Assembly: GCA_043228905.1 (NCBI GenBank)
Contig: JBHGNT010000012.1
Coordinates: forward strand, 18,414,001-18,478,000
DNA: 64,000 bases
From: Azolla caroliniana
Lineage: Eukaryota; Plantae; Polypodiophyta
Reading direction: 5' to 3'
Positions 17,331 through 64,000 of the stretch are shown here, one piece after another (within the stretch, counting starts at the first letter, position 1; every line of letters begins with the position of its first letter). The notes beneath the pieces are model-generated. The model was not told the origin of the DNA, ran no database searches, and worked only from the letters and a program-made list of their open reading frames with translations. The position numbers and the translations under genes are program-made.

Positions 17331-17924
17331 CTATCTTCGATTAATGATCTTGTAATTGTTGGATTTAATGCTGTCGAGCGGCGGCAAACTCCTTAAATTC
17401 ATTTCCTGCCTTTGGGTAGTGGTAATCATGCCCCTATGCTGTTGTAGTTGCTTCTTTTCCTTCGAAGAAGATAATGCAGCAGCGATCCGCATCCGACGGA
17501 GTATATTGGGTTTGGCATTCCTCCATTTCCTAAGTGTATGTTGCTGCTTGTGGTGATGATGACCCGATTGCGATTGCGGGCGCGGTAGTTCTTCTGGCCG
17601 GAGGAGGCAAATGGTGCGTTGCCTCTTCGCCAAAAGCTCTCGCTCGTAACCTACAGCGAGCTTCCGCTTGGTTCTTTGAATCTTCTCTTCATAGCTGCTG
17701 CTGCTGTGATGGTGGAGGAGCTTCTTCCAGGCAGAGATGAGGGCTTTGGCGAGGGAGGCGATGGCGGGAGAAGGGTGTTTGGTCAATTCGTAGGTGGTCT
17801 TGCCGATGCAGGTGTCTCTGAGAATGTAGGCATCCTTGTGGAGCAGGATGAGTGGCTGAAGCTTCTGTAGGAGGTCCACCAAGATTGGAGCAGAAGTCTG
17901 GGGTGGACCTGCAGCATGCTTCAT
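17331..17924 (-). CDS. Intronless MED26b/c-like protein (TFIIS N-terminal/LW domain), divergent; 197 aa from ATG 17924 (ORF open to 18089)
   Basis: LVDLLQKLQ...ILRDTCIGKTTYELTKHPSPAIASLAKALISAWKKL matches TFIIS-N. EEKIQRTKRKLAVGYERELLAKRQRTICLL matches the plant MED26b/c C-terminal motif (KL..TKRKL...Y.....AK.QRTI). The start codon is uncertain. Confidence 0.7.
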   Translation of the reverse strand: MKHAAGPPQTSAPILVDLLQKLQPLILLHKDAYILRDTCIGKTTYELTKHPSPAIASLAKALISAWKKLLHHHSSSSYEEKIQRTKRKLAVGYERELLAKRQRTICLLRPEELPRPQSQSGHHHHKQQHTLRKWRNAKPNILRRMRIAAALSSSKEKKQLQQHRGMITTTQRQEMNLRSLPPLDSIKSNNYKIINRR

Positions 17925-18065
17925 TATTTGCTGCTCAATTGCTGTAACCTCTTGGTTTAGAGGTTCGGTTCGGTTCAAACCAAACCGAACCGTTGCCGAT
18001 TGACAGCAATGGAGGAGGAGGAGCAATGGAGGGTTGGTAGGTGCATATCCATAGAATAGATTGGA

Positions 18066-18525
18066 TTTGATGGAATGCAATGGACGCAAAGGAGAGAGAG
18101 AGAGAGAGAGAGAGAGGTGGTGCTTTTTTTTTTGGAGAATAGTAGGCTGGTAAGGCCGAATTCGGGAATTAGGGTTAGGGTTAGGGTTAGGGGTTTGCAG
18201 GATTTAATGGTGCTAGATGGGCTGGAATGGAATGGACGCAGGGCTGAGGGATTGAGGGAGAGAGCTTGTGGTGCTTTTTTTTTTGGAGAATAGTTGGCTG
18301 GTAAGGCCGAATTCGGGAATTAGGGTTAGGGTTAGAGTTAGGGTTAGGGTTAGGGGTTTGCAGGATTTAATGGTGCTAGATGGGCTGGGATGGAATGGAC
18401 GCAGGGCTGAGGGATTGAGGGAAAGAGCTTGTGGTGCTTTTTCTGAGAATAGGAGGAGGCTTTTAAGAATGAATTCGGGAATTAGGGTTAGGGTTAGGGT
18501 TAGGGTTAGGGGTTTGCAGGATTTA
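18066..18525. repeat. Tandem array of about 3 units of about 160 bp, each containing (TTAGGG)3-5
   Basis: Unit TGGAATGGACGCA...GAATTCGGGAA(TTAGGG)nGTTTGCAGGATTTAA starts at about 18070, 18228 and 18391. Confidence 0.85.
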
Positions 18526-22566: not shown

Positions 22567-25500
22567 TCATGTATGAGTATTTTCTCCTCTTAAGATCTCC
22601 AACTCTCCAATTTCATTGTTGTTTTCATTGTTGTTTAATGGGCTGCTGGAACAAAACCAACTAATAATAGGCCAAACACCACTGCGGGCAACAAGAATGA
22701 TGACTGCATACATGCCACCTGCTTGAGCAAGGGTTTGAAGCAACCGATAAAAAAAGGTGGTGTGCGAGATGACGATGCAAAAGCTTGGATTGCACAGCTC
22801 CATATATCGGGTCCAATTTACAAACATTCTTAATCCCAACCCCTGTGGTAAGTCTTCCACATCCTTATAATTCGACCTTGCATCTTTCAGAACATTCTAG
22901 AGGCCAACATATCCTCGATTAACTTTCACCATTCAACTTTAAGTAAATTGGAAGCAGAAACTTTGATTCTAGACATTAACATTATGTTATGCATATTATG
23001 TTATCAAGAGAATTCTACATCTAATATGATTACAATCTAATAGTTTTGGGTAGTGTAAATGCGTCTTACAAAAGGGAATTCTACACATTAACATTATGTT
23101 ATGCATGTTATATTATCAAAAGAATTCTACATCTAATATTATTACAATCTAATAGTTTTGGGTAATGTAAACGCTTCGTACAAAAGAGAATAAATCAAAT
23201 TCAACAAGTTGTGTGCCTTCCTAAGAATTTATCAAGATGCAATGAGAATTTAAAATAGATTTTACACACTTAAAACTTTCATTTTGGAATTCTTGTACAG
23301 ATTTATTGTGCAGGAGTTCATGGATTGCAATATGGACTTGCATATGCATGTGTATAAATTCCAATTATCAAATTATAGATTTGATGTATGTGTATATCAT
23401 TTGAAGCAAGAGTTTACTGTAAAACAGAATCATGTGATACGCAAAATATTGCTCATTAATTTACTTCATATGATATTATATCATTTTGGTTTTTGTTCTT
23501 TAATATTTCATAGACTTCATAAAATTACCTTGCTTACATTCCAAAAGTCCAACACTGAGCTGGAAGTATTAATTCGGAATTGACTTGCCATTTTTGTTAT
23601 TAAGGCTGCCACTGTTAATGTTCGATTATCAACATTTGCCGTACCATTAGGCCCTAATGTCCGTGATGTGGCAGCCATTATGGTCCCTATCATAGAAAAA
23701 TAGTGGACAACCATTAAAAGAAATCAGGGAACACGTCAAATTGAACATGTATTATATGCATCTTTCCAATTATAATGAAATTGTCATTATAAATAGCAAT
23801 GGTTCTTTGTATCTCTGCTAGTCCAGAAAGGTTTTACCTTCAATCTCTTTACCCACATCATCATAAAGAGTGGCAAAGCTTAACAAATTTGCAGTAAACA
23901 TATTTGTGTGTGCAACATCATCTGCACACAGTGTGTAGTCCATCACACTGTGACATGTATCCCCAGACTTATCTACCAAACCCAATCAAAGTCATTTCTG
24001 GTTTATTTGTGAAATAAATTTACTCTGTTTGAACCAATTAATATGAGATATTACCTCCGCAAAACTCATTAGCTACACCAGCATAGTTTGTCTTTGTATC
24101 AATGGGCAGTTGTTGAATCATGACGATGCCGTGAACATTCATAATCTTAGCAAGTAATAAGGCCAATACTTATCATTGTTTCAAATACAAATCAGTAATG
24201 CAACATTTTCACAAAATGTACACTAGTTTAACAGTGAGCAGACAACCAATTTAATACATCAGTCGGGTGGGTTTCTCCCAACATTACCAAATCTCTCTAG
24301 CCCTATAGTGGTGCTAGCTATGGTCTGTTTGTGAGGCTGTCTTTGCAACTCTGCCTTATTGGTCGGGTATATTGAAGTGGTTTCTGAACTACTCTTTGGT
24401 TGTCATGCATATTTTATATATGTTCTTTCATAGCCTACTGTAATTCCTGAATTTACCTAAGGATTTCAACCTTATCGGTTCCAACATCTAATGATTAATA
24501 CTTATATACTTTCCAAATAGCAGCTACTCATGGTTTAAATGTTTCTGAAATTTTGGTTTCTCCTTAGTTAATTTGCGTTATTTCTTTTGTAATGGAGACT
24601 TTGCCCTTGTTTCCAACCTAGGAAGGACAGAAGCCTTGGTAGAAATCTCGCTAAGGTGTGTGTGATATGTATGCAATGGAAGACGCCGAGGAGCAGAACT
24701 AATTAATAAGAGACAAGGGGAAGCAAGAATAATCTCTGATAAAAAAGAAGCCCCAACCATACCAAGAAATCGAAAGGAAGCTGAACACTCTCGGTTAAAA
24801 GAACATAAGAGGAAGACAGCTGAAAGCTCCAGGAGGTTCTGTCTGAGAATATGGCAACTATAGTGTCTTTCTATGAGGGAAGAGGAAGACAGGTGATGTA
24901 TACTTTTAAGCCCCATTGATGGTTCGTAGTGACAATGGAAAAATAATAGGCATTGATCAAAGGCTGCTTATAACTGGCAGCCTGCTCTTGCCAGTCCTGA
25001 GGTGGAGAACAAAGAGGCATAATCACTGGCTGATACATATCTCAAAAAAGAAAGCACAACAGATTATAAAGGCGGAAAATCTGCCTCTACAATTAAACAT
25101 TAAACACATCTTGATTTTCCCGTGTGTAAATACTTTAATGACTCCCTTCATGTATCTACTATTTTCCAAGCTTTACATTTTCTAGTGGAGAAACAGAAAC
25201 TTTTTACACCAAATTATGCATTCAGGAACCACTTATATAAAGACATTAAGATTCATGGGGGAAGATTAAACCTATGCTCTCTTATAACTTTTCGATGTTT
25301 CTCTACATGGCATCAACGATTTCACATTCACCAAAAGAAAGAGTAATGGGTGAGTAAGGATTACAGAAAAGCTACTCCTTAATCTCTCAGATAAATGAAA
25401 ACATATAAAATCCATAACCCTCAAACATAGATAGATAGCTAACTAATGCGCGACCACATTTTTGTATGTGAGATTTTATAAAAAGTGTTTAAATTAGAAT

Positions 25501-25996
25501 TCATCGATTCCTACATAAGGGTATAAAAAATGTCAAACCTGTTGAGGGTAAAGAAGGTAGAATGTAGTGTAAGAGCACCAGCTGTTTTCAGGTTCGGAGC
25601 AAGGGCAGATGAAGGGGAGATGCGAGTCATTCGAGATCGTTGTGAGGCCACGGGTGACCAAGACCGAGAGTTTGGCAGTAACATCAATGCCTGTCTTCAA
25701 GTCTGTTCGAATACTGGGTTGTCGAAGGGCAAGCGTGAGAGTTGCCGCAAGAAAAGCAAATACAACTAGTACAACCAGAAGCAGTCTTGCTATCCGCCGG
25801 TATTTCTGTGTAACCTGCGCTTCAGTCCAGCTGCAACCAAAATCAAAGAGAATGAGAGGAAAGATAATCTCAAACGAGATCACAATCATGCAAAAAATGA
25901 AACAAAATATTTCTTCTCTACATCCTAAAAAGAGACTTTCATTAGACGTCCCAAAAACATTAGTCAATTTCCCATCAGCTTGCTCTACAAATACAA

Positions 25997-26031
<35 letters not shown>

Positions 26032-26620
26032 TGATGTTGCGTTCAAATCGATCCTAGTAATGGATGAGCTTCGTATCAATAAAGTTCTGGATTCAAGTCT
26101 CCAGGAATGGATTTGAGACCCAAGCACATCAACCACTTGAATTTGCTGGAAAATAAATTTGTCACATTTCATATCTTCTCCCCCCCCCCCCCCCATCCAT
26201 CTCCAAACCCTTTCAAATGTATAGATTTGGGAGACATGAAAACTGAAGGCAGAGTATCCCAGGATATCTCCAAACAAATAACTCGGCATTCATAAAACTT
26301 GAAATGATTACAGAGAACTAGAGAAAACCAGGAATCGCAAAAAAAAATGGAGCGAGAAAGAAAGAAAGATATATTAACGTCTTCTAAGGCCAAATTTGGC
26401 CCATGAGACAATTGATTTACAACAAAAATAGGGTATTTACCCATTCAGCGAAAGAAAAAATAAAATCAAAATAAAATAAAATAGAGCTAAAGCTAAATGG
26501 TTCTAGTAATAAAAAAAAAACATGTTCTACAGTTAAAAAAACATATTGAGAGAGAGAGAGAGAGAGAGCGTACTCGAAATCGTGGATTACAGTGGCTGTA
26601 AACTTATGAAGGCGGTCCAT
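22567..26620 (-). CDS. Uncharacterised 347-aa two-transmembrane protein with a large Cys-rich loop
   Basis: Exons 26620-26574, 25830-25539, 24145-24055, 23972-23838, 23686-23538 and 22896-22567 are all GT..AG and phase-compatible (1044 nt, ending in TGA). TM1 is IARLLLVVLVVFAFLAATLTLAL; TM2 is LLQTLAQAGGMYAVIILVA..VWPIISWF. An additional exon in the 1.4-kb intron cannot be excluded. Confidence 0.8.
22974..23190. repeat. Intronic tandem duplication, about 112 bp x 2
   Basis: ACATTAACATTATGTTATGCAT...GAATTCTACATCTAATAT..TTACAATCTAATAGTTTTGGGTA occurs twice. Confidence 0.85.
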
Positions 26621-27633
26621 CCATCACCCCCTGCAATCTTCTGTTTTTTCTTCCGGATTGTTCTACATACGTTTCTGTCTGTTGCAGAGAAGGAGTACAA
26701 AGACATATATACTGTAAAATGTGTGTTCACGAAGTAAAAAAAATAAAATAAAATATGTCTTGCGTTAAAACAAAGACAACCAACACCACGCCACAATGCA
26801 CAATGCTTCCCTCCTTAACCGGTTTATTGGTTCGGTTCAGGCTTGAGCCTCCTTAACCGGTTTGGCAAGGCTCAAGCCGAACCGAGCCATTTAGGGTTTA
26901 GGGTTGAGGGCTCGACCAATGAGTCAATAGAAATTGTGCATGGGTCCTAAATTCTAGACCACTTTGAAAAGGCATTGTTTTCGGATAATGAGTAATTGTA
27001 TTGAAATAGAAATAATAGTATAAGCAACTATTATATAAATTAATACAATAATGTAAAGGATAAAAGTTTTATAATGGTGGCTAACTAACCTTAACTTCTT
27101 GTTTGAGCCTATCTAGTCCAGAGAATCTCTTATTCTTAATGCACCATGGTGTGAGTTTATGTTGAGTCAAGTTGTTGATATAGTTATTTATCCATTGATG
27201 GCATGATTGTTTATTCCCATTTCACACCCAAGATAGTTTGATGTTATGTAGTTGCGCACGCTGGTTTTAATCTAAAAAAGAAGAATGTTTGTTTGATGAA
27301 GTTTAAGCTCGGATTCGTTGCCAAAACTCATGTATGATTGTATGCGCCAACCCTAAATGTGCATTGATAATTGGATTTCACACACTAACCAACAAGATTA
27401 GTCATATGGTACACCAAATGAACAATGTTTTGAGACCCAACTCATCCAAATGCTCTCCCAATCTTGCAATCATAGGGGGAGACTATTTGGCCTTAGCCTT
27501 AATTCGAAATTTTACTTTACAATGTGCAATGTTGATATTTTGTCTTTTAGGAATCATCCTATCCACACTATTTGTCCCATTAAATGGCGCTTGGAAAAAG
27601 GCACTTGGTTAGGTATTACAACTTCCTTGCGTC

Positions 27634-27938
27634 TAAGAATCGGCAATGGATTCGGCTCAAGCCAGAACCAAACTGTTAAACAATTTGGTTAGACTTGAGC
27701 TTCCTTAACTAGTTTGAGCTCGGTTTGGGATGGCTCAAGCCGAACCAAACCAAATTCCAAACTGGTTAAGGCTTGTACAGCGTGGCTAAACCATTTTAGG
27801 CTTAACCGATTTGGCTAAACCAATTAACCTTAACCAGTTTAGGAATCGATTCAATTCAAGTTTGGAAACTCCCAAACCAGTTAAAGGCTTAACCAATTTG
27901 GTTTCAACAAGGCCAAACCGAACCGTTCTCAATCCCTA
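27634..27938. mobile_element. hAT-type MITE (305 bp)
   Basis: Ends TAAGAATCGGCAATGG / CCGTTCTCAATCCCTA, with a near-perfect 8-bp TSD CTTGCGTC / CTTGCATC. Related AACCG-rich fragments lie at about 26810-26900 and 28170-28450. Confidence 0.7.
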
Positions 27939-28950: not shown

Positions 28951-29025
28951 CAGACGGAAACGGCTTGATTTTGCGGCTTGGCTTGCGGCTTGGCCCACGT
29001 TCCGCCGTTCTTTCTCTGCTTTCTG

Positions 29026-29197
29026 ATGGGAACCGCCGTTCTTTCTCCTCAAGATTGCCTGCCATCGCCTCCTCCTCCTCCTCTTCCTCCTCCGCAGAAG
29101 AAGAAGAACAGGCGATTCTACTCCGCCGCCATTCCTAGCACCACCAATTCGCTACCTGCTATTGCCGCTGCGAAGCTACACCAACATCTTCTTAATC

Positions 29198-29230
<33 letters not shown>

Positions 29231-30216
29231 TGCTTGCGTATCGCTTGCCTGGTTTTGCCACCGATTCTTCAAATGCTCCGCGAGGTCTAGCATTCCCGAA
29301 ATCTGGTTTCCATGGCGGATTGCTTCCTTTACCAGACAACAGTCTCCTTGGATCTGTACATTCTCAACATTCTTTCTTTGCTAATGCGCAGTTGCCGCTT
29401 TGTGCAGAGTTTCCATCTCCTTGTTCCCTCCAGCATAGCAGTTACCAGAGATGCCCGCTGCAAGCGTCGTTTTTACCTCCTGCACCCCCTCTCTCTTCTA
29501 TTTCTTTTTCTGACTTGATCTCCCCGGGCAATACAAATCGAAATAGTTGCAGGTCTTCTATTATCCGATCATCAATCCATGGCAGTCTGCCACAGGAATC
29601 AGCCTATCCAAAGTCTCAGGTGAAAAGTTCCCATTCTCATGCCTGCAAAAATAAGATGCGAAACCAAAGCTTTCACCCGAGGAAGAGAACGCATTATATA
29701 GACGTTGAGACTGCGAAATGTAACTCGAAGCCGTCAAAGAGAGAGTCGATCCACAGCGAGTATGACGGTACAGAAGTTTATAGGAAAACCGAACCAGATC
29801 GTAATAGACGTTCAAAGGAAAACACGCACAGTAATAGAAGAATTAAGACATCAAACCATGTGAATGACAGGGAAATGTCGTCAGGTTGTAATCCTTCTCG
29901 AAGTTTAGAGGACGTGAAAGAAATTAGCTGCGATGAAGATGCGCTGTCAGAGAAAAGTAGCAGCAGCGAAGAGAGGTGGGCCGGGCCTTCCTTCTTCAAC
30001 TCTCCACCCCCGAGCTCCCTTCCATTGCCGACCTTCTCCATCATCAAGACGTCCACAGTTTCCTGTGATGATCAATATTTCCATGAGAGTCTTGAACACA
30101 AACATGCATTCCCCTCGCCAGAAGTAATTTTATCAGGAAATGTACCAGATGCTGTCTCTGCAACCAAAATTTTGAGAAAACTTCTGAATATGGATCCCCT
30201 AAGGTCTGTATCTTAA
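29026..30216 (+). CDS. Intronless, largely low-complexity plant protein with a PNRC/Edc1-like motif (396 aa)
   Basis: N-terminal MGTAVLSPQDCL, poly-Pro and poly-His tracts, WAGPSFFNSPPPSSLPLPTF, and C-terminal ATKILRKLLNMD. These three blocks are typical of a conserved plant family of PNRC-motif proteins. Confidence 0.85.
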
Positions 30217-34064: not shown

Positions 34065-37000
34065 ATGGAGAAAAAACCAAAGAGAAATGGCAGCTGCAAT
34101 GAAGAAAGTATTGTCAAACTACAGACAAAGAATCCTAAAGTCAGCCCGTTAAAGCTTCCATTAGGGAACTCTCGGATGGCTGTCCTCAGAGGTTTATAGC
34201 TAATCATGTGTATATTTATATTATAAGTTCTTTCAGCATTGTATTACATCTTAAACTCATTACATATGCACATAGAAAAGTCTCTCCAGTGATCATTGGG
34301 ATTGAAATAAACAGTCTAGCAATTTTAAGAGTATGATCCATATATTTTCTTGACAAAAGATCTATAATTAACAGATAAGCATTGGGATAACTGTCCTTGG
34401 ATTGTGACACAGGATTTGGGGGTAGCCTTGCTGAGAATGCTCAAACGTCACGACCTACTCAGAATGTACGGTCTTTGAAGAAAATTTTACATGTAGTTTT
34501 CAGATAAAGTAAAGTGGCATTAATTGTATGATCACTGTTCGGCAGTTTGAAGAGGAAGGGATCTCCCATCATGCTTATACTGATCGTGGCTCATATAGGA
34601 AAAGCTCCTCGACAAATCACTCTGGGAAGTGTGAAGTAAGACACCCATTTATTACGGATACTATTCTATGAAGGCATGCTATATGTAAAACAAAATCAAG
34701 AAGGCCTGCTTGCATTTCTCATATTTCTGATATCTGTGTTCAAAGCACATTTCTGACAAAAAGTGTTCCCATAAGGTACAATTTTAAGTTGGGGATTTGC
34801 TTCTGGTATTGAACTTCAATATCACTTTCCTTATGCTATTTGTAACGCTTGATTAGTCCAATTGACTCAAAGACCACCTACAGGCAGAAAATCTTTTCGA
34901 TTTTATGAATGGGTATCACAGCAGAAATACTTTTAAACTTGACATTGAGCATCTGAAGGGAAATGATGTGCTTAGAAACCAGCTTAATTGTGTTGCTCAA
35001 ATGGCTGTGCAGAAAACGAAGGACCCTAGTCTTTCGAGCTCATCGGGTGTTTCAATGACTTCTGAAAGTAAGTTTTTAGGGCTGACACTAAAAAGTATGC
35101 GGCACATAGTAGATAAGATATGTATTTTGGCCAATATCTGAGTTTTTTCTTGATTCAAATTTAATAGCAGCTTTAAAGGAGTATGGGAATCATCTCACTG
35201 GATATGAGCGTAATGAAATCAAGGCATACTCCGAAATCTATTTTATGGGCACAAATAGCCGAAAGCTTCAACCTTGCAATATCCCGGGCCCATGTAATTA
35301 CGGTTGGTAAAACAGTAACATTTACTTTCACATTCTTCATTCATTATCATCATTAACATAATGGGAAACTCCTCCTATGGAAATGGTGAGCTAAATCTGC
35401 CCAGAGTCAACATACCCTGAGAGCATCTGTGATCCTTATGTTGCATATGTTAAAAATGTTACTGTCACAATGTAGTGAACCAACTCTATATTTTCATTGT
35501 CCCAGGATTTGATGATGAGCGAGGTGATTATACTATTGTTGAACATGATCATATTGCTTATCGCTTTGAAATTCTTGGAATATTGGGAAAGGGGAGTTTT
35601 GGGCAAGTAGTCAAATGTAGGGATCACAAGTGTAAGGTTCTCAGAGCAATTAAACTTATTAGAAATAAGAAAAGGTTTCATCAACAAGCGCTTGTTGAAG
35701 TGAGGATCTTACATCATCTAAGGAAGAAGGTAAGATTTTGCTCCAATCATCTTTATCAGATTAAATTAGTAGATTATATTTTTTCTGATCATAAACGAAT
35801 GGAGCCCAACCAAGTAAGGCTTCAGCACTGAAATCTTGCAAGTGGCGTTTTATAGTTAACTGTTATAAACTAAAAGTATGGTTATATAACCACCACATCA
35901 TGCAAAAGCAGTTCCCAAGTTTTAGAAAATATACATTTTAGAAAATGCTGGTCTACGTTTGTCGATGCTCAATAATGGGAGAATCTCTAAATACCGTAAG
36001 AGAACACTAAAAATATGCATGATCAGAATCATAGTCTCATGTATAATATTATTCCTTGTTTACCCAAGTATTAAAAGATCCCAAAAAGAGACGTTGATGA
36101 AAACAATAAAGTGGCTCTAGGATTTTAGCAAGCTAGTATAATTGATAAGACACGGTATAGGTTTCATGCCACTTTCTTTCTTTTTTTTAGCATGAAATTG
36201 AAAGTTTAAGCTCTATAAATTTCATCATTTGAGAAATTCTTTAGAAGGTTTATATATGGATGATATTGATAGTACGTTATAATTATAGAGACAAGGACTT
36301 TTTCCACCTAACTTACTGCAATCTGATATCTAAGTATCTTTATTTTCTGATCTTTCAATATCATTAACCGTTTGGATCTATTAGTATTGACATCTAGTAG
36401 TTTGTGGAAGGTTTTTGCAGGCTGAAGAAGAAGATGTTAGCCATAGTGTTGTAACTATACATGAGAGCTTTTATTTTCGTGGTCATTTGTGCATTTCATT
36501 CTCTCTTCATGACATCAGTTTGTATGAGCTCATGAAAAGAAACAATTTTCGGGGAATAAGCTTGGTACTCATTAAAAGCTTTGCTGTGCAACTCTTAACA
36601 ACACTTAAATTCTTGCGAAGCCTCCATGTTATTCATTGTGATTTGAAACCTGAGAACGTCTTGTTACAACATCCATCCATGTCAAAAATCAAAGTGATTG
36701 ATTTTGGATCGAGTTGCTTCGATCATGAAAGAAGTATGTTGTACAACCTGGAATTCAAACGGATTTTAAATAATTTCTAGGTTCTTGGTATTAATGTTTA
36801 TGTGCTACAGTTTTCTTCTTTCACCACCCTATTTTAAATACTGTCTTCTGAGGTCATGTGCATGTGTACATGCATGAATATGTGTGGAGAGACAGGATTA
36901 ACACATTTCATTTCATTCTTTCCTAATATTTTGCCTATCTTTGTATTGAATTATTTTGTTTTTTCATTCTTTCCTAGTCTTTTGCATATCTTTATCTGAC

Positions 37001-56848: not shown

Positions 56849-59800
56849 TTATAACATGGTCGTGTCAAGAGTTCGAATCTTGACATTATCCCCCCTCTTA
56901 CGCCGCCGCCTTCCCAAATCGGCCGCTGGTTTGTGGGGATATCGGTGATGAAAATCTTGGACGACCTCTGGGGCATTTTGTAAATTTGCTGATGGTTCCC
57001 ATGTGGCCTCAGACATGGGGTAACCCCTCCATAGGACGAGGTATTGCAAGTGTTGACGGTGCCAACGCGAGTCAAGGATTTGGTCGACCTCGTATTCCTC
57101 CCCTGTCGTCAATTGCACAGGTGGTGGTGGTGGGGCTTGACGTCCTGGGAGTTGTGAAGCATAATGGGGTTCGAGGAGGGAGACATGAAAAACATCGTGA
57201 ATCCGGAAGTGGGATGGAAGGGCGAGCCGGAAGGCGACGGGATTGATGCACTCGATGATACGGAATGGTCCTAGCTTCTTGTAATCAAGTTTCGCACATG
57301 GACGAGTAGTAGAGATGTGTCGACGTAACAACCAGACCATGTCTCCAACGACAAAGTGTGGAGTTGAAGATCGATGGCGATCAGCCTGCTTCTTGTATCG
57401 TTCATTAGCAAGACTAAGCTCCAAGGATAAATCATGATGTACTTCTTCCAAAATACGGGCACGATCCTCCGCCGAAGGGTTCACGGAAGTGGTAGGAAGG
57501 GAAATGTTGAAGCGAGGATGTAAACCGTAGTTGGCAAAGAAGGGAGTGACGCCAGTCGATGCATGGAGAGAATTATTGTAGGCGAATTCCGCGAGCGAAA
57601 GTAAGTTGACCCAATCATCTTGTTGGTAACTAACCGAGCACCGAAGATACTGCTCAAGGATTTGGTTGACACGCTCCGTTTGCCCGTCAGTTTGGGGGTG
57701 ATAAGCGGAGGACAACTTGATAGAGATGCCTAGAGTTTGTAGCAGGCGCTGCCAGAAGTGAGAGACAAACTGGGGTCCGCGATCCGAGATGACATCATCG
57801 GGGAGTCCATGCAAGCGTACTACATTGTTGAGTAGGAGATGCACCATTCCTTCTCCGGAAATGGTTTTGGAGCATGGAGTGAAGTGAGCCATCTTCGTAA
57901 ACCGATCGACAACGACCAACACCGAGTCATAGCTATTGACCAAGGGTAGATCAGTTATCAGGTCCATAGAGATAGAGGCCCAAGGACGACGAGGACATGG
58001 AAGCGGCTGTAGTAAGCCGTATGGCCGATGATGAATGGCTTTGGAGCGAGCACAAACCTCACAACTCTTTATGTATTCTTTGACCAGCTTCCATGGTTGT
58101 GGCCACCAATACCCCCGAGAGATTAGCTCGAGGGTTTTCGCGACCCCGAAATGACCTGCAAGTGGGTCATCGTGGCATTCCCGCAACACCCGGGTGCGAC
58201 ATGGGCCCTCTGGGACGTATAAGAGATGATCTCGGAACAACAAACCCTCTTGTATGGTGAAGGTGTCAAGATCCTTCCTTTTGGTCGCCTTGGAGGGGTT
58301 TTGCAAACTATCTCGAATCTCGTTGGCGAACGCATCGGTCTTGGATGCATCAGTGATTTGTTGGAGTAAAGAATCATCCTGCAACATACAAGTGGCAAAC
58401 AGATGCAATTGGTCGGGTTTCAACAAACGTCTAGATTGTTGAGCATAAGCAGCATCCCCAGGGCGGAGTGCAAGGTCAGCTCGGCGAGAAAGGGCATCAG
58501 CCTTCCCATGTTGGCCACCAGGTCGAAATACGATCTCAAAATCGTAGTCGGCGAGAAATGTAGACCAACGGGCCTGCCTTCGATTCAAAGTACGAGTGGT
58601 GGAAAAATAAACTAAATTTTTATGATCAGTCACTACCTGGACACGATGTTGTGCGCCGGCCAAGTAGGGTCGCCATTCTTCAAAGGCAGCAATGATAGCA
58701 GCAAGCTCCTTGTCGTAAATGGGATAATTGATTTCAGATGCCGTAAATTTTCGGGAATAGTAAGCCACTGGGTGCATTAGGTTGTTGTCGTCTGCTTGGG
58801 ATAAGATGGCGCCAATGGCAAAGTCAGAGGCATCGGTTTCGACTTGGAAGGGTTTTGTGGGGTCGGCATGTAGCAGCACCGGGGCAGTGATGAATGCGTG
58901 TTTGAGTGAGTCGAACGCATTTTGTGCCTCCGAGGTCCATAAAAATGGAGTGCCTTTATGGGTGAGAGCGATAAGAGGTTGTGCTAGGGTGGAAAACCCC
59001 TTGATGAAGCGACGGTAAAAATTCGCGAAGCCGAGGAAGGATTGCACATCTTTAAGTCGCCTTGGAGTCGCCCACGCCTGAATGACAGAGACCTTCTTCA
59101 TATCCATGGTGATGCCAGTGGGCGAGATGATGTAGCCCAGAAATTCGATCGAGGTACGGTCGAACTCGCATTTCTCGCCTTTGGCATAAAGGCCATGCTC
59201 GCGAAGTTTGGCCAGAACTAATCGGACTTGGCGAGTGTGCTCCTCCATGTTTGGCGAGAAAATGAGAATATCATCGAGGTAAATGACAACAAAAAGATCA
59301 AGATATTCCCGGAAAATATCGTTCATCATATGTTGAAAAACTGCGGGAGCGTTAGTAAGACCAAAAGGCATTACCTTGTATTCGAAATGCCCATACCGTG
59401 TTCGAAATGCGGTTTTCCATTCATCCCCCGGCTTGATGCGTACTAGATTGTACGCGCCACGCAGATCAACTTTGGAGAAGACACGCGCAACTCGGAGCCG
59501 ATCAAGGAGTTCGGGGATCAAAGGTAGCGGATAGCGGTTGCGCACAGTGAGTTTGTTGAGACCTCGGTAATCGACGCATAAGCGTAGAGAGCCATCCTTC
59601 TTCTTCACAAATAAAATGGGGGCCCCGGCTGGTGACTTAGAAGGTTGAATAAAGCCTTTCTCGAGGTTCTCATCAAGATACACACGAAGGGCCTTCAACT
59701 CTGGTGCAGACAACGCATATAGAGGACCAAAGGGTGGACACGCACCTTCTTGAAGATCAATCGGACAGTCGTAGAGCCGGTGTTCAGGCAACCGATCAGC

Positions 59801-60433
59801 ATTACATTTTTCAAATACGTCGGAGAAGTGTTGGTATTTTTCGGGAATAACATGGAGTGTGTTAGAAATGGTGCCACAAACAAACCCATCCTGGACGGAT
59901 GATGGGGTAGTCAATTCGGAGTCGACCGTCTCCGAAGGATAGGAAACTGAATTTACCTTCATACTTTTGCACGAGCATCTTGGCTTGCTAAATGTGATCG
60001 AGCGGTTGCACCAATCCACTATTGGATTGTGCGCCTCCAACCACGTTAGTCCTAAGACGATCGGATGTCGAGGAGATGCGATGAGGTAAAAGGTGAGCTC
60101 CTCTTGGTGTGAGCCCACCCGAAGCCCTAATGGGATTGTAGCTTGAGTAATTGCACCTGACGAGAGGACGCACCCGTCGATGGCTTCAACTGGAATGGGT
60201 TTTGAGAGGCCAACGACAGGTACGCCATGTGCTTGGGCAAACGCGACGTCGATGAAGCAAGAAGATGCCCCAGAATCAAGTAAAGCAACAGACTGAATGG
60301 AACTAGAGTTAAACGAAAGCCATACCTCCAATGTGAAATTGCCTGATGGTCCGGCAATGGAACCAAGAGAATGTGGGCGACGGGAGATGTCCAGTTGCAT
60401 GGCTCCTACTGCAACCGAACGATGTCGTTTTCC
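56849..60433 (-). CDS. pol: Pol: protease-RT-RNase H-integrase-chromodomain, probably expressed by -1 frameshift
   Basis: LLDSGAS, LCVDYRGLN, YLDDILI, ETDASD, H..GH..C..C, DDVISDRGPQF, DGQTERVN, LGPF, and chromodomain YEVDQIL...YLVLWRGY...ATWEP. The ORF ends inside the 3' LTR. Confidence 0.97.
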   Translation of the reverse strand, partial: GKRHRSVAVGAMQLDISRRPHSLGSIAGPSGNFTLEVWLSFNSSSIQSVALLDSGASSCFIDVAFAQAHGVPVVGLSKPIPVEAIDGCVLSSGAITQATIPLGLRVGSHQEELTFYLIASPRHPIVLGLTWLEAHNPIVDWCNRSITFSKPRCSCKSMKVNSVSYPSETVDSELTTPSSVQDGFVCGTISNTLHVIPEKYQHFSDVFEKCNADRLPEHRLYDCPIDLQEGACPPFGPLYALSAPELKALRVYLDENLEKGFIQPSKSPAGAPILFVKKKDGSLRLCVDYRGLNKLTVRNRYPLPLIPELLDRLRVARVFSKVDLRGAYNLVRIKPGDEWKTAFRTRYGHFEYKVMPFGLTNAPAVFQHMMNDIFREYLDLFVVIYLDDILIFSPNMEEHTRQVRLVLAKLREHGLYAKGEKCEFDRTSIEFLGYIISPTGITMDMKKVSVIQAWATPRRLKDVQSFLGFANFYRRFIKGFSTLAQPLIALTHKGTPFLWTSEAQNAFDSLKHAFITAPVLLHADPTKPFQVETDASDFAIGAILSQADDNNLMHPVAYYSRKFTASEINYPIYDKELAAIIAAFEEWRPYLAGAQHRVQVVTDHKNLVYFSTTRTLNRRQARWSTFLADYDFEIVFRPGGQHGKADALSRRADLALRPGDAAYAQQSRRLLKPDQLHLFATCMLQDDSLLQQITDASKTDAFANEIRDSLQNPSKATKRKDLDTFTIQEGLLFRDHLLYVPEGPCRTRVLRECHDDPLAGHFGVAKTLELISRGYWWPQPWKLVKEYIKSCEVCARSKAIHHRPYGLLQPLPCPRRPWASISMDLITDLPLVNSYDSVLVVVDRFTKMAHFTPCSKTISGEGMVHLLLNNVVRLHGLPDDVISDRGPQFVSHFWQRLLQTLGISIKLSSAYHPQTDGQTERVNQILEQYLRCSVSYQQDDWVNLLSLAEFAYNNSLHASTGVTPFFANYGLHPRFNISLPTTSVNPSAEDRARILEEVHHDLSLELSLANERYKKQADRHRSSTPHFVVGDMVWLLRRHISTTRPCAKLDYKKLGPFRIIECINPVAFRLALPSHFRIHDVFHVSLLEPHYASQLPGRQAPPPPPVQLTTGEEYEVDQILDSRWHRQHLQYLVLWRGYPMSEATWEPSANLQNAPEVVQDFHHRYPHKPAADLGRRRRKRGDNVKIRTLDTTML

Positions 60434-61422
60434 GGATGGTGGGGTCCGTTAGCTCTATGGAATTGTGGGCGAGTACTCCTAGGACAATGGCGAACGACAT
60501 GACCGGAGGCGCCACAATACATGCACAAGCCATTAGCCCGCCGAAATTGTCGTTCAGCATCAGTCAATGGTCGAAATCGGGCTTGATCAATTTCCATGGG
60601 GACAGGAGCATCTGCCGAAGTAGGCGAGTGTGAGGATGCTTGGGGTTGTATGACCGGGGCGTGGCGTGGAAGTGAATGAGGTGGGAACCAAGTCCGGCGC
60701 TCTTCTTGGCGAAATTCGAAAAGACGATTGTCACAATGGACTGCTTGTGAAATCGCTTGGGATAACGAGGTGGGCTCCGGAAAGTTTAAGAGAAGATTCT
60801 TGACATTGCTTCGAAGACCGCGCCGAAAGTGATCAGCTAAAGCTTGATCATCCCAATTGACGTCGCATGCTAGTTGTCGAAATTCGGAAGCATAGACCGA
60901 AGTTGCACGTGAACCTTGTTCGAGTGCATAAATCTTGTTAAGAGCTGTACGTCGTCGGTCCGTCTCTCCAAATGTGGCCTCTAACTCGGCGAGGAAGGCG
61001 GGAAAGTCCTCCAATAAAGGTGATGAGGTTTCTACCAATGGTGCAAACCAAGCTTGGGCCGGACCGGAGAGAAGGGTGCCCACAAGGCCGACTTGTCGAA
61101 GACCATCTCCATAACGTTGAGGTTGTAGCCGAATGATAAGTCGAACTTGGTTGATGAACCCTCGGAAACGCGACCTCGTTCCATCAAATTTTTCTGGGAG
61201 GCTAACCTTAGGCTCAAGAAACTGTGACGAAGCTAGGCTAGATGTTGGTAGAAGATCGGGCTCTAGGCTAGGTTGTTGTGGGAGACTAGGGTTCGGGGGT
61301 TGTGAGGATAGGGAGGTACCGACTTGAAGTTCTTGTAAAGAATTTCGAAGAGCTTCATTTTCAAGTTGTAGTTGTCGCAAGGCTACCATTATTTGGCCTA
61401 ACTCACTAGTTGAGTCGGACAT
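60406..61422 (-). CDS. gag: Gag (PEG10/Tcn1-like capsid plus CCHC zinc knuckle)
   Basis: PEKFDG.R..FRGF, LEQG..ATSVYASEF, PVPMEID, CMYCGASGHVVRHC. Confidence 0.95.
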   Translation of the reverse strand: MSDSTSELGQIMVALRQLQLENEALRNSLQELQVGTSLSSQPPNPSLPQQPSLEPDLLPTSSLASSQFLEPKVSLPEKFDGTRSRFRGFINQVRLIIRLQPQRYGDGLRQVGLVGTLLSGPAQAWFAPLVETSSPLLEDFPAFLAELEATFGETDRRRTALNKIYALEQGSRATSVYASEFRQLACDVNWDDQALADHFRRGLRSNVKNLLLNFPEPTSLSQAISQAVHCDNRLFEFRQEERRTWFPPHSLPRHAPVIQPQASSHSPTSADAPVPMEIDQARFRPLTDAERQFRRANGLCMYCGASGHVVRHCPRSTRPQFHRANGPHHPENDIVRLQ

Positions 61423-64000
61423 AGCTATGGCTTATGAGAGGGAGAGCTATGAGGATGGGAAGGTGAACAAACTGTCACGGATCATAAACTCAAGAAACAA
61501 CGAAGAAGATAACCAAATGGACAAGAAAGAAGATAGTACTAAAGGAAAGACTCCATAACTGGTGTTGTTCACCTTGAATTCCTTCAAGGTGAACTCCTCT
61601 ATTTATACTACATGGCATGCATACTTGTTGCACGCATGTGAATCTACAATAGAGCATGTAGGTATGCATGCATGTGCCAAGTGTAAATACTACAAGGGAG
61701 CAACTATGCACATGATGCTAGCAAAATAATAAGGAACAATTACATACATAACTAGTACTAGATATCTTGGTTAACTCATAATAGTAGATTATAACATGGT
61801 CGTGTCAAGAGTTCGAATCTTGACAGTTAGGAGGGGTTAAAGGTGGTGTTTCAAATTTCATTAAGTATACAACAAGGCTACCCACTAGCACCATATCTAT
61901 TTCTATTTTTTGTTGAAGTTATGTGCTTGTTTTTTGTTGGTGAAGATGTTGGATTGAATGGAATAGCTATGCCCCTTGATGGGACAAATGTTCTGGATGT
62001 AGAATTATCTAGATGGTTAGATTACTAATTTGCAAAAATGTAAACAATAGTGCAAACTTTTTGTACTACTTTAGGTGCATCAATTAATTGGAACAAATCA
62101 GTGGGTTTTTGGGTGACATCGAATTCCACTCCACAATGATGTCCTCATCTAGATTTCCGATGGATTCTCAAGGGAAACTCAGTTAGATATTTGGGATGCC
62201 AAGTAGCCTTCAAAATTTCTAGTGGGTAGAGTGATAGTAGTCAATCAAGTTCTTTTGTCTAGTCTTTGGTATATTATGTCACATTGGAGTTTTTTCAGAT
62301 CATGTATGGGACAATTACAAAGATTGATCCGGAATGATTTGTGGTTTGGTAATGATGGAAATCATGCTAGGGCAAAGGTCTCATTACAACAATCCAAAGC
62401 TTTGGTTGCGAAATTGGTGATTGTTACCAGGATCAGAACCTTGGAAACAATTCTTATTATACAAATTGCAAAAGTTTGTCCCCAAATTGGTGGAGATTGG
62501 AGGCCCAATTTTTTATGGATTTTTATGGAACACAACAAGTTGGTTATTTGCTTGGTCTATTCTTAATTCATGGAAAGACGTTTCTCTTGATTTAGTTAAG
62601 AGATTGCCAAAACAAAAACTGAATTCTATGGATGACCCTTGATTTGGAATTCGTATTTTGCTGACAATAGGGGACATATGTTGGGAAGGCATACTCGATG
62701 TGCATGGGCAGAATTAGATTGCAGACCAACACAATCTATAGGTGCATGGACATCATTCCTGTCTACACCTATAGAACGATAATGCTTAATAATATAAGGG
62801 GTAGAAAGACAATATATTATGCGATATAAACCACCCTGTCTAATATTTAGATGCAATTTGGATCTTCTACACATATTGGGTTTATTTACTACATTGGATT
62901 TTTTCATTGGAGTAAAACCCTATATTGGGGAAGAAGTTTGTATGACCTTTGATGTACATGATGATGGTAGGTTAACTTTCACACATAAGGAAACTAATTT
63001 GTTTAGTTTTTTGTTTGCATAAAGAAGTGAGGGTGATTGCAAATGATGGATAAAATTAGGTCTTAGATCTGGATCAACAAAAGGTGAATTACTTTTGAAG
63101 GATATGGATTATGGAAAGGAGACCAATATCTAAATTAACTTGGATCTTGGAGAATTGTATTGAATGGTGTGGATTCAAGATAAGAGAAAACATGTGCCTT
63201 TTTGAAACATTATTTGAAGATTGGTAGGAAAATATTAGGTGCTAGATCATGGAAAGAACAAACCACAAATGCTTTCTAGAGACGAAGTGGACTTTCTCCA
63301 TAACATTTCAAACAAATTTGGCAATGGTTGTGGGTTATAACAATGAGTAGGAAAAATGATTGTTTTTGTTGGTTGTTGGTTCATAGAGCTATACGAATTA
63401 ATGGTTGACGAAAGGGAAATACAAGATGTGCTCTTTTTGTGTGGATCTAGTAGAGACTATTAAGCATTGTTTGTGGAGTTGTGGTTTTGTGATGGAAATA
63501 TGGAAAAGAATGATAACAATGTTAATATCACTATATCCTTGAGAAGTGTATACATGGGAAGCGGTATTATGGGCGGTGGTAAAAGATAAACCAATGGTAT
63601 ACGAACAAGAAGTGGTTGCATATGCTATTGCTATGAGACATGGTTTGATGCAAAAAACATTAATACCTTTGAATCCATAAATAGAGATTGATAAACCTGA
63701 AATATGGCAATTGGTAAGTAGTATCACAATTTGGTATATTTGGGAGGCTCTATGGTTGAAGGTATTTCAAAATGTGATTGAAAGACCTACCCAAATAATT
63801 TTTGGGATTTGGACAGAGATTGTGCATAATCTCAGAGGTTCTTTGAATAATATAAAAGGTAATATGCAACAGGCTGAGCTCGGTTGGAGTTTCATGCCAC
63901 CCGGGACATAAGCATATTTTATAGATGGATTTCTAATAAGGTAGAGTAGTTCTACTCTACACTAGAATATTTATTTAAGCCAATGGTTAGAATTTAGAAA

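Follow-up and report, generated by a model that had tools for sequence, protein, structure and literature searches.

A predicted two-pass membrane protein with a large cysteine-rich loop, the plan of DEG/ENaC-type channels, is encoded by the fern Azolla caroliniana, which raises the question of whether it is a channel of a known family, a channel of another kind or no channel at all. The gene occupies 22567..26620, on the minus strand, of the 64,000-nucleotide stretch that was analysed, hereafter the window (contig JBHGNT010000012.1, positions 18,414,001 to 18,478,000). The explanation we favour, tentatively and at somewhat short of an even chance, is a membrane glycoprotein of a family of its own that likely forms a trimer and likely conducts ions, with its second transmembrane segment (TM2) predicted to line the pore. 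This reading is drawn from the two-segment plan, a likely sheet linking the two segments, a relative in which three units are fused, and a gate-like spacing within TM2.

The gene is real and spliced. All five introns run from GT to AG, and the spliced frame is open for 350 residues up to a single terminal stop. A 710-nt contig of sequencing run X2 is joined precisely where introns 2, 3 and 4 lie and has continuous sequence across intron 1; the run comes from a related organism, its RNA nature is a guess, and the contig differs from the window by 30 letters in exon 2. Indels in the contigs of runs X1 and X2 are multiples of three in coding exons (4/4) and never so upstream of the ATG (0/2). Exon 1 carries Thr8 in 14/17 and Asp14 in 16/17 non-gap rows of the family alignment, while exon 6 is matched by an 81%-identical protein over 79 residues as well as by 45 family members. 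The six-exon, two-pass gene proposed in a preliminary description of these letters is thus borne out. Its 347-residue product holds in part: a second GT donor 9 nt further into exon 5 yields that length, but intron 5 lies outside the contig cover and the donor choice rests on relatives. The 350-residue form is slightly favoured, since its Ser three residues past a conserved Trp is the same in the four closest relatives; it also gains a sixth N-glycosylation sequon. Within intron 5, window positions 22973-23190 hold a tandem repeat of about 115 bp in two copies. Short repeated or palindromic elements, possibly resembling miniature inverted-repeat transposable elements, lie at 26350-26430 in intron 1, where many unrelated contigs align, and upstream at 26820-26890 and 27640-27900.

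A profile built from the last two exons recovered 45 proteins at E <= 0.001 among 1.84 billion representatives, and an alignment search added four more. Thirty of the proteins were looked up, and all ten that carried an organism name came from land plants: Ceratodon and Marchantia (MPTK1_1g26520) with one member each, Calypogeia, Pteridium, Ginkgo (two), Magnolia, Aristolochia, Tetracentron and Elaeis. Every named member is annotated as hypothetical or unnamed, no description of the family came up in the literature searched, and MPTK1_1g26520 is mentioned in none of its papers. Judged from these sequence matches, the family is land-plant-wide and undescribed; besides liverworts and mosses it includes some flowering plants, and it is not limited to the non-seed plants that were first suggested to have kept or acquired it. 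That it was unrecognised does stand, as no member comes near the cut-off of any Pfam family (searched with 21 aligned members at E <= 1 and with a set of 12 proteins). Conservation was read from 23 rows of nearly full length, made up of the window protein plus 22 matches, with fragments excluded. Invariant or nearly so are six cysteines, a Trp and a Tyr before TM2, the Gly-Gly of TM2 and a closing Trp-Pro; all eight loop cysteines reported earlier are present in the window protein, but only these six are conserved across the family. In a tree, the window row is placed without support, and its nearest rows form a group that contains a fern protein. The shortest full-length member, P0036 (282 residues, on an 82-kb contig), has the longest branch in the tree and no match among viral contigs or phages.

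In the window protein, the first transmembrane segment (TM1, about residues 28-52) reaches a Kyte-Doolittle peak of 2.55 and TM2 (about 293-317) a weaker one of 1.56. The loop between them, of about 235 residues, contains eight cysteines, with a ninth after TM2; its sequons and cysteines point to an extracellular orientation. Two segments, short termini (predicted for this family on a relative's model, below) and a glycosylated, disulfide-bonded loop are shared with the DEG/ENaC proteins ASIC1, ENaC and FaNaC, and the small/polar/x/Gly/Gly spacing in TM2 resembles that of the ASIC1 gate. P2X subunits likewise combine two segments, a similar length, disulfides and glycans. Yet on the sequence evidence the family is not to be filed under either heading. 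PF00858 and PF00864 found no match in the 21 aligned members at E <= 1, the set of 12 proteins or five window exons. The DEG/ENaC His-Gly motif (PMC10148893, PMC7308080) precedes TM1 in 1/23 rows, and not in the window protein, and a G/S-x-S belt is seen in TM2 of 1/23 rows, in line with the earlier remark that neither was evident; positions 309-311, equivalent to the GAS belt, are aliphatic. The P2X YxxxK motif (PMC3360091) follows TM2 in 0/23 rows.

An ATP-gated P2X-type channel kept in early land plants is accordingly a very remote prospect. P2X is reported from the green alga Ostreococcus and not from Arabidopsis, and higher plants are reported to be without it (PMC3360091). To the missing YxxxK and PF00864 match is added a loop that a relative's model predicts to be half helical, not beta-rich. 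The P2X ectodomain also has ten conserved cysteines, as against six here. PAC/TMEM206, the proton-activated chloride channel, offers a precedent outside DEG/ENaC: a trimeric channel of ASIC-like plan, with about 350 residues and two segments per subunit, that has neither His-Gly nor GAS. Its ectodomain is beta-rich, and no sequence link between it and the family turned up.

The ectodomain was judged on the model of a 28%-identical relative used as a stand-in for the window protein. In this confident model, 112 of 224 ectodomain residues are helix and 45 strand, which is unlike the beta-rich palm and ball of ASIC1 (PMC10148893). A helical bundle would sit above a small, likely membrane-proximal sheet, made of one strand after TM1 and two before TM2; here, as in DEG/ENaC, the first and last ectodomain strands likely share that sheet. 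The predicted ectodomain as a whole is without a clear solved relative. These features bear on the possibility of a stripped-down true DEG/ENaC homologue, which would have kept TM1, the lower palm, a knuckle-like helix and TM2a and lost or replaced the ball, thumb, His-Gly and GAS. The modelled short N-terminal helix before TM1 and the strand-helix-strand order before TM2 fit such a history, as do the TM2 spacing, rows such as ASIC1a and FaNaC1 that reach 10-15% identity, and the reported Deg/ENaC genes of two non-animal groups, heterokonts and a filasterean relative (PMC10507113, a survey whose main text names no plant members). We regard this homology as improbable: besides the two nearly absent motifs and the unmatched PF00858, the half-helical ectodomain has no recognisable ball or Cys-rich thumb, and the TM2 helix is predicted to be unbroken, without a GAS-type break. 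The C-P-x-x-C motif lies about 12 residues before TM2, compared with a thumb-like position in the ASIC layout.

TM1 is uniformly hydrophobic and variable, and TM2 is better conserved. Residues 298 (small, 96%), 299 (Gln, 16/23) and 302 (Gly, 23/23) are spaced like Gly432, Asp433 and Gly436 of the chicken ASIC1 gate (PMC7308080, PMC10148893). In agreement with the preliminary description, TM2 looks channel-like. A stripe of polar and small residues along the helix gives p=0.046 in one window of residues and 0.086 in another. A membrane-tethered glycoprotein of the secretory pathway or cell wall (scaffold, adhesion protein or cargo receptor) with no role in transport would explain the many sequons, the variable helical ectodomain and the mostly structural nature of the invariant residues (Cys, Trp, Gly, Pro); it is quite improbable, for a plain anchor with a drifting TM1 would have no need of a polar stripe and an invariant Gly-Gly in TM2. 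The main rival, itself unlikely, is a non-conducting two-pass sensor or auxiliary subunit of another channel, a flippase or a receptor, with the conserved TM2 face as the partner interface. BK beta subunits and CDC50/ALIS proteins are examples of such subunits. The same plan of two segments, disulfides and glycans would fit, as would the very divergent paralogs (20% identity), the want of a selectivity-filter motif and, in 22/23 rows, the lack of acidic residues close to the end of TM2. Nevertheless, no Pfam match to such families was obtained at E <= 1 in 21 members, and the polar Gln in mid-TM2 is retained in most rows.

The relatives beyond plants provide the best hint at stoichiometry. P0042 (1275 residues, E 1.9e-4), whose taxon is not on record, is built of three complete units and nothing more; TM1, CPC, the cysteine block ahead of TM2 and a TM2 containing Gly-Gly recur in every unit, and its last block aligns at an HHalign value of 65%. 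Such a chain hints at a trimer and would suit a homo-oligomer more readily than a protein bound 1:1 to another. In the ESM Atlas, a plant member lies closest to rotifer clusters of 410-652 residues (0.93-0.94), which is moderate evidence, as the recognition score falls below the tool's mark. P0042 resembles these clusters. Such rotifer-type repeat proteins share with the plant family a TM1-strand-helix-CPC block and a Y-x-x-x-C-x-P-x-x-C-TM2-GG block; they differ in having about 420 residues per unit, more cysteines and, in P0042, three units per chain. They are likewise uncharacterised and form a clade apart from all 28 plant-type rows in the tree. Profile matches, Atlas neighbours and alignment agree with the earlier remark that CPC, C-P-x-x-C and GG mark a family common to other eukaryotes. 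The Atlas also returned ciliate-rich clusters with PF27811 (Y80K_N), weak look-alikes (0.81-0.82) that are a lead only. The case for a trimeric, TM2-lined channel is qualified as follows: the three-unit chain is known from a single cluster, the conservation of TM2 is inflated by a search based on the last exon, and the ASIC-like spacing could arise from a generic packing pattern.

Under the channel reading, the small-x-x-x-Gly positions (298, 301/302 and 305) would be where the three TM2 helices cross, and Gln299 would sit at the upper gate. The variable helical part would sense a signal from the lumen or the apoplast, which would open the gate through a pull on the small sheet. With the GxS filter missing, selectivity for Na+ is less likely than a conductance for Ca2+ or for cations without selection. 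A possible heteromer partner is the product of a paralog on contig C4 (L003:5011-7527), of four exons and 362 residues and 20% identical to the window protein. All three of its intron joints are seen in contigs of both runs, and its first two introns match those of the window gene in place and phase. In its TM2, Glu replaces the Gln of most members and so comes nearer to the Asp of the ASIC gate. Searching the genome with the last exon or with family members yielded these two loci, so there are at least two. The window copy is fast-evolving, its end branch measuring 1.63 against a median of 0.68; third codon positions hold 13 of the 28 listed differences from the X2 contig (p=0.10).

Features of the gene and of the surrounding window
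Feature	Position	Strand	Basis
Exon 1: ATG, short cytoplasmic N-terminus, conserved Thr8 and Asp14	26574..26620	-	splice model, contig cover, alignment
Exon 2: TM1, the ectodomain's first strand and helix, and the CPC motif	25539..25830	-	splice model, contig joint 24145/25539, alignment
Exon 3: invariant Cys142	24055..24145	-	splice model, contig cover, alignment
Exon 4: conserved Cys150 (21/22 rows)	23838..23972	-	splice model, contig cover, alignment
Exon 5: predicted helical ectodomain part	23529..23686	-	splice model; contig cover 23623-23685 only
Exon 6: pre-TM2 block, TM2, short tail, stop	22567..22896	-	splice model and homology; outside contig cover
Predicted TM1 (residues 28-52), invariant Arg27 and Arg31 before/at its start	25722..25796	-	hydropathy; Arg in 19/19 non-gap rows at both sites; stand-in helix 28-55
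CPC motif (Cys91, Cys93)	25599..25607	-	22/22 non-gap rows
Signature W-x-x-Y-x-x-x-C-x-P-x-[YF]-C (residues 269-281)	22777..22815	-	W, C, C 23/23; Y 22/23
Predicted TM2 (293-317): small 298, Gln299, Gly301-Gly302, small 305, closing Trp-Pro	22669..22743	-	GG 23/23, Q 16/23, small 96% at 298 and 305
Ty3/gypsy-type long terminal repeat retrotransposon, open gag and pol (protease, reverse transcriptase, RNase H, integrase, chromodomain)	56849-61431	-	
Protein kinase exons (PF00069)	35454-36780	+	
Single long open reading frame, TFIIS/Med26 helical domain	17331-18203	-	
Single long open reading frame, C-terminal PNRC motif	28969-30216	+	

The kinase among the neighbouring features may be DYRK-like, judging by its motifs.

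Plants answer extracellular ATP, pH and mechanical cues by ion fluxes. Against that background, the family may be a fourth class of trimeric two-pass channel beside DEG/ENaC, P2X and PAC, a proposal that we consider doubtful enough to put forward only with reserve. Such a class would join a DEG/ENaC-like gate module to a new helical sensor domain, span land plants between liverworts and mosses at one end and magnoliids, palms and an early eudicot at the other, be related to the rotifer-type proteins with a trimer in one chain, and supply plants with a ligand- or pH-gated conductance. If the protein is not a channel, it still belongs to a land-plant-wide, unannotated membrane family, and for the confidently predicted ectodomain of that family no solved structure is a clear relative.
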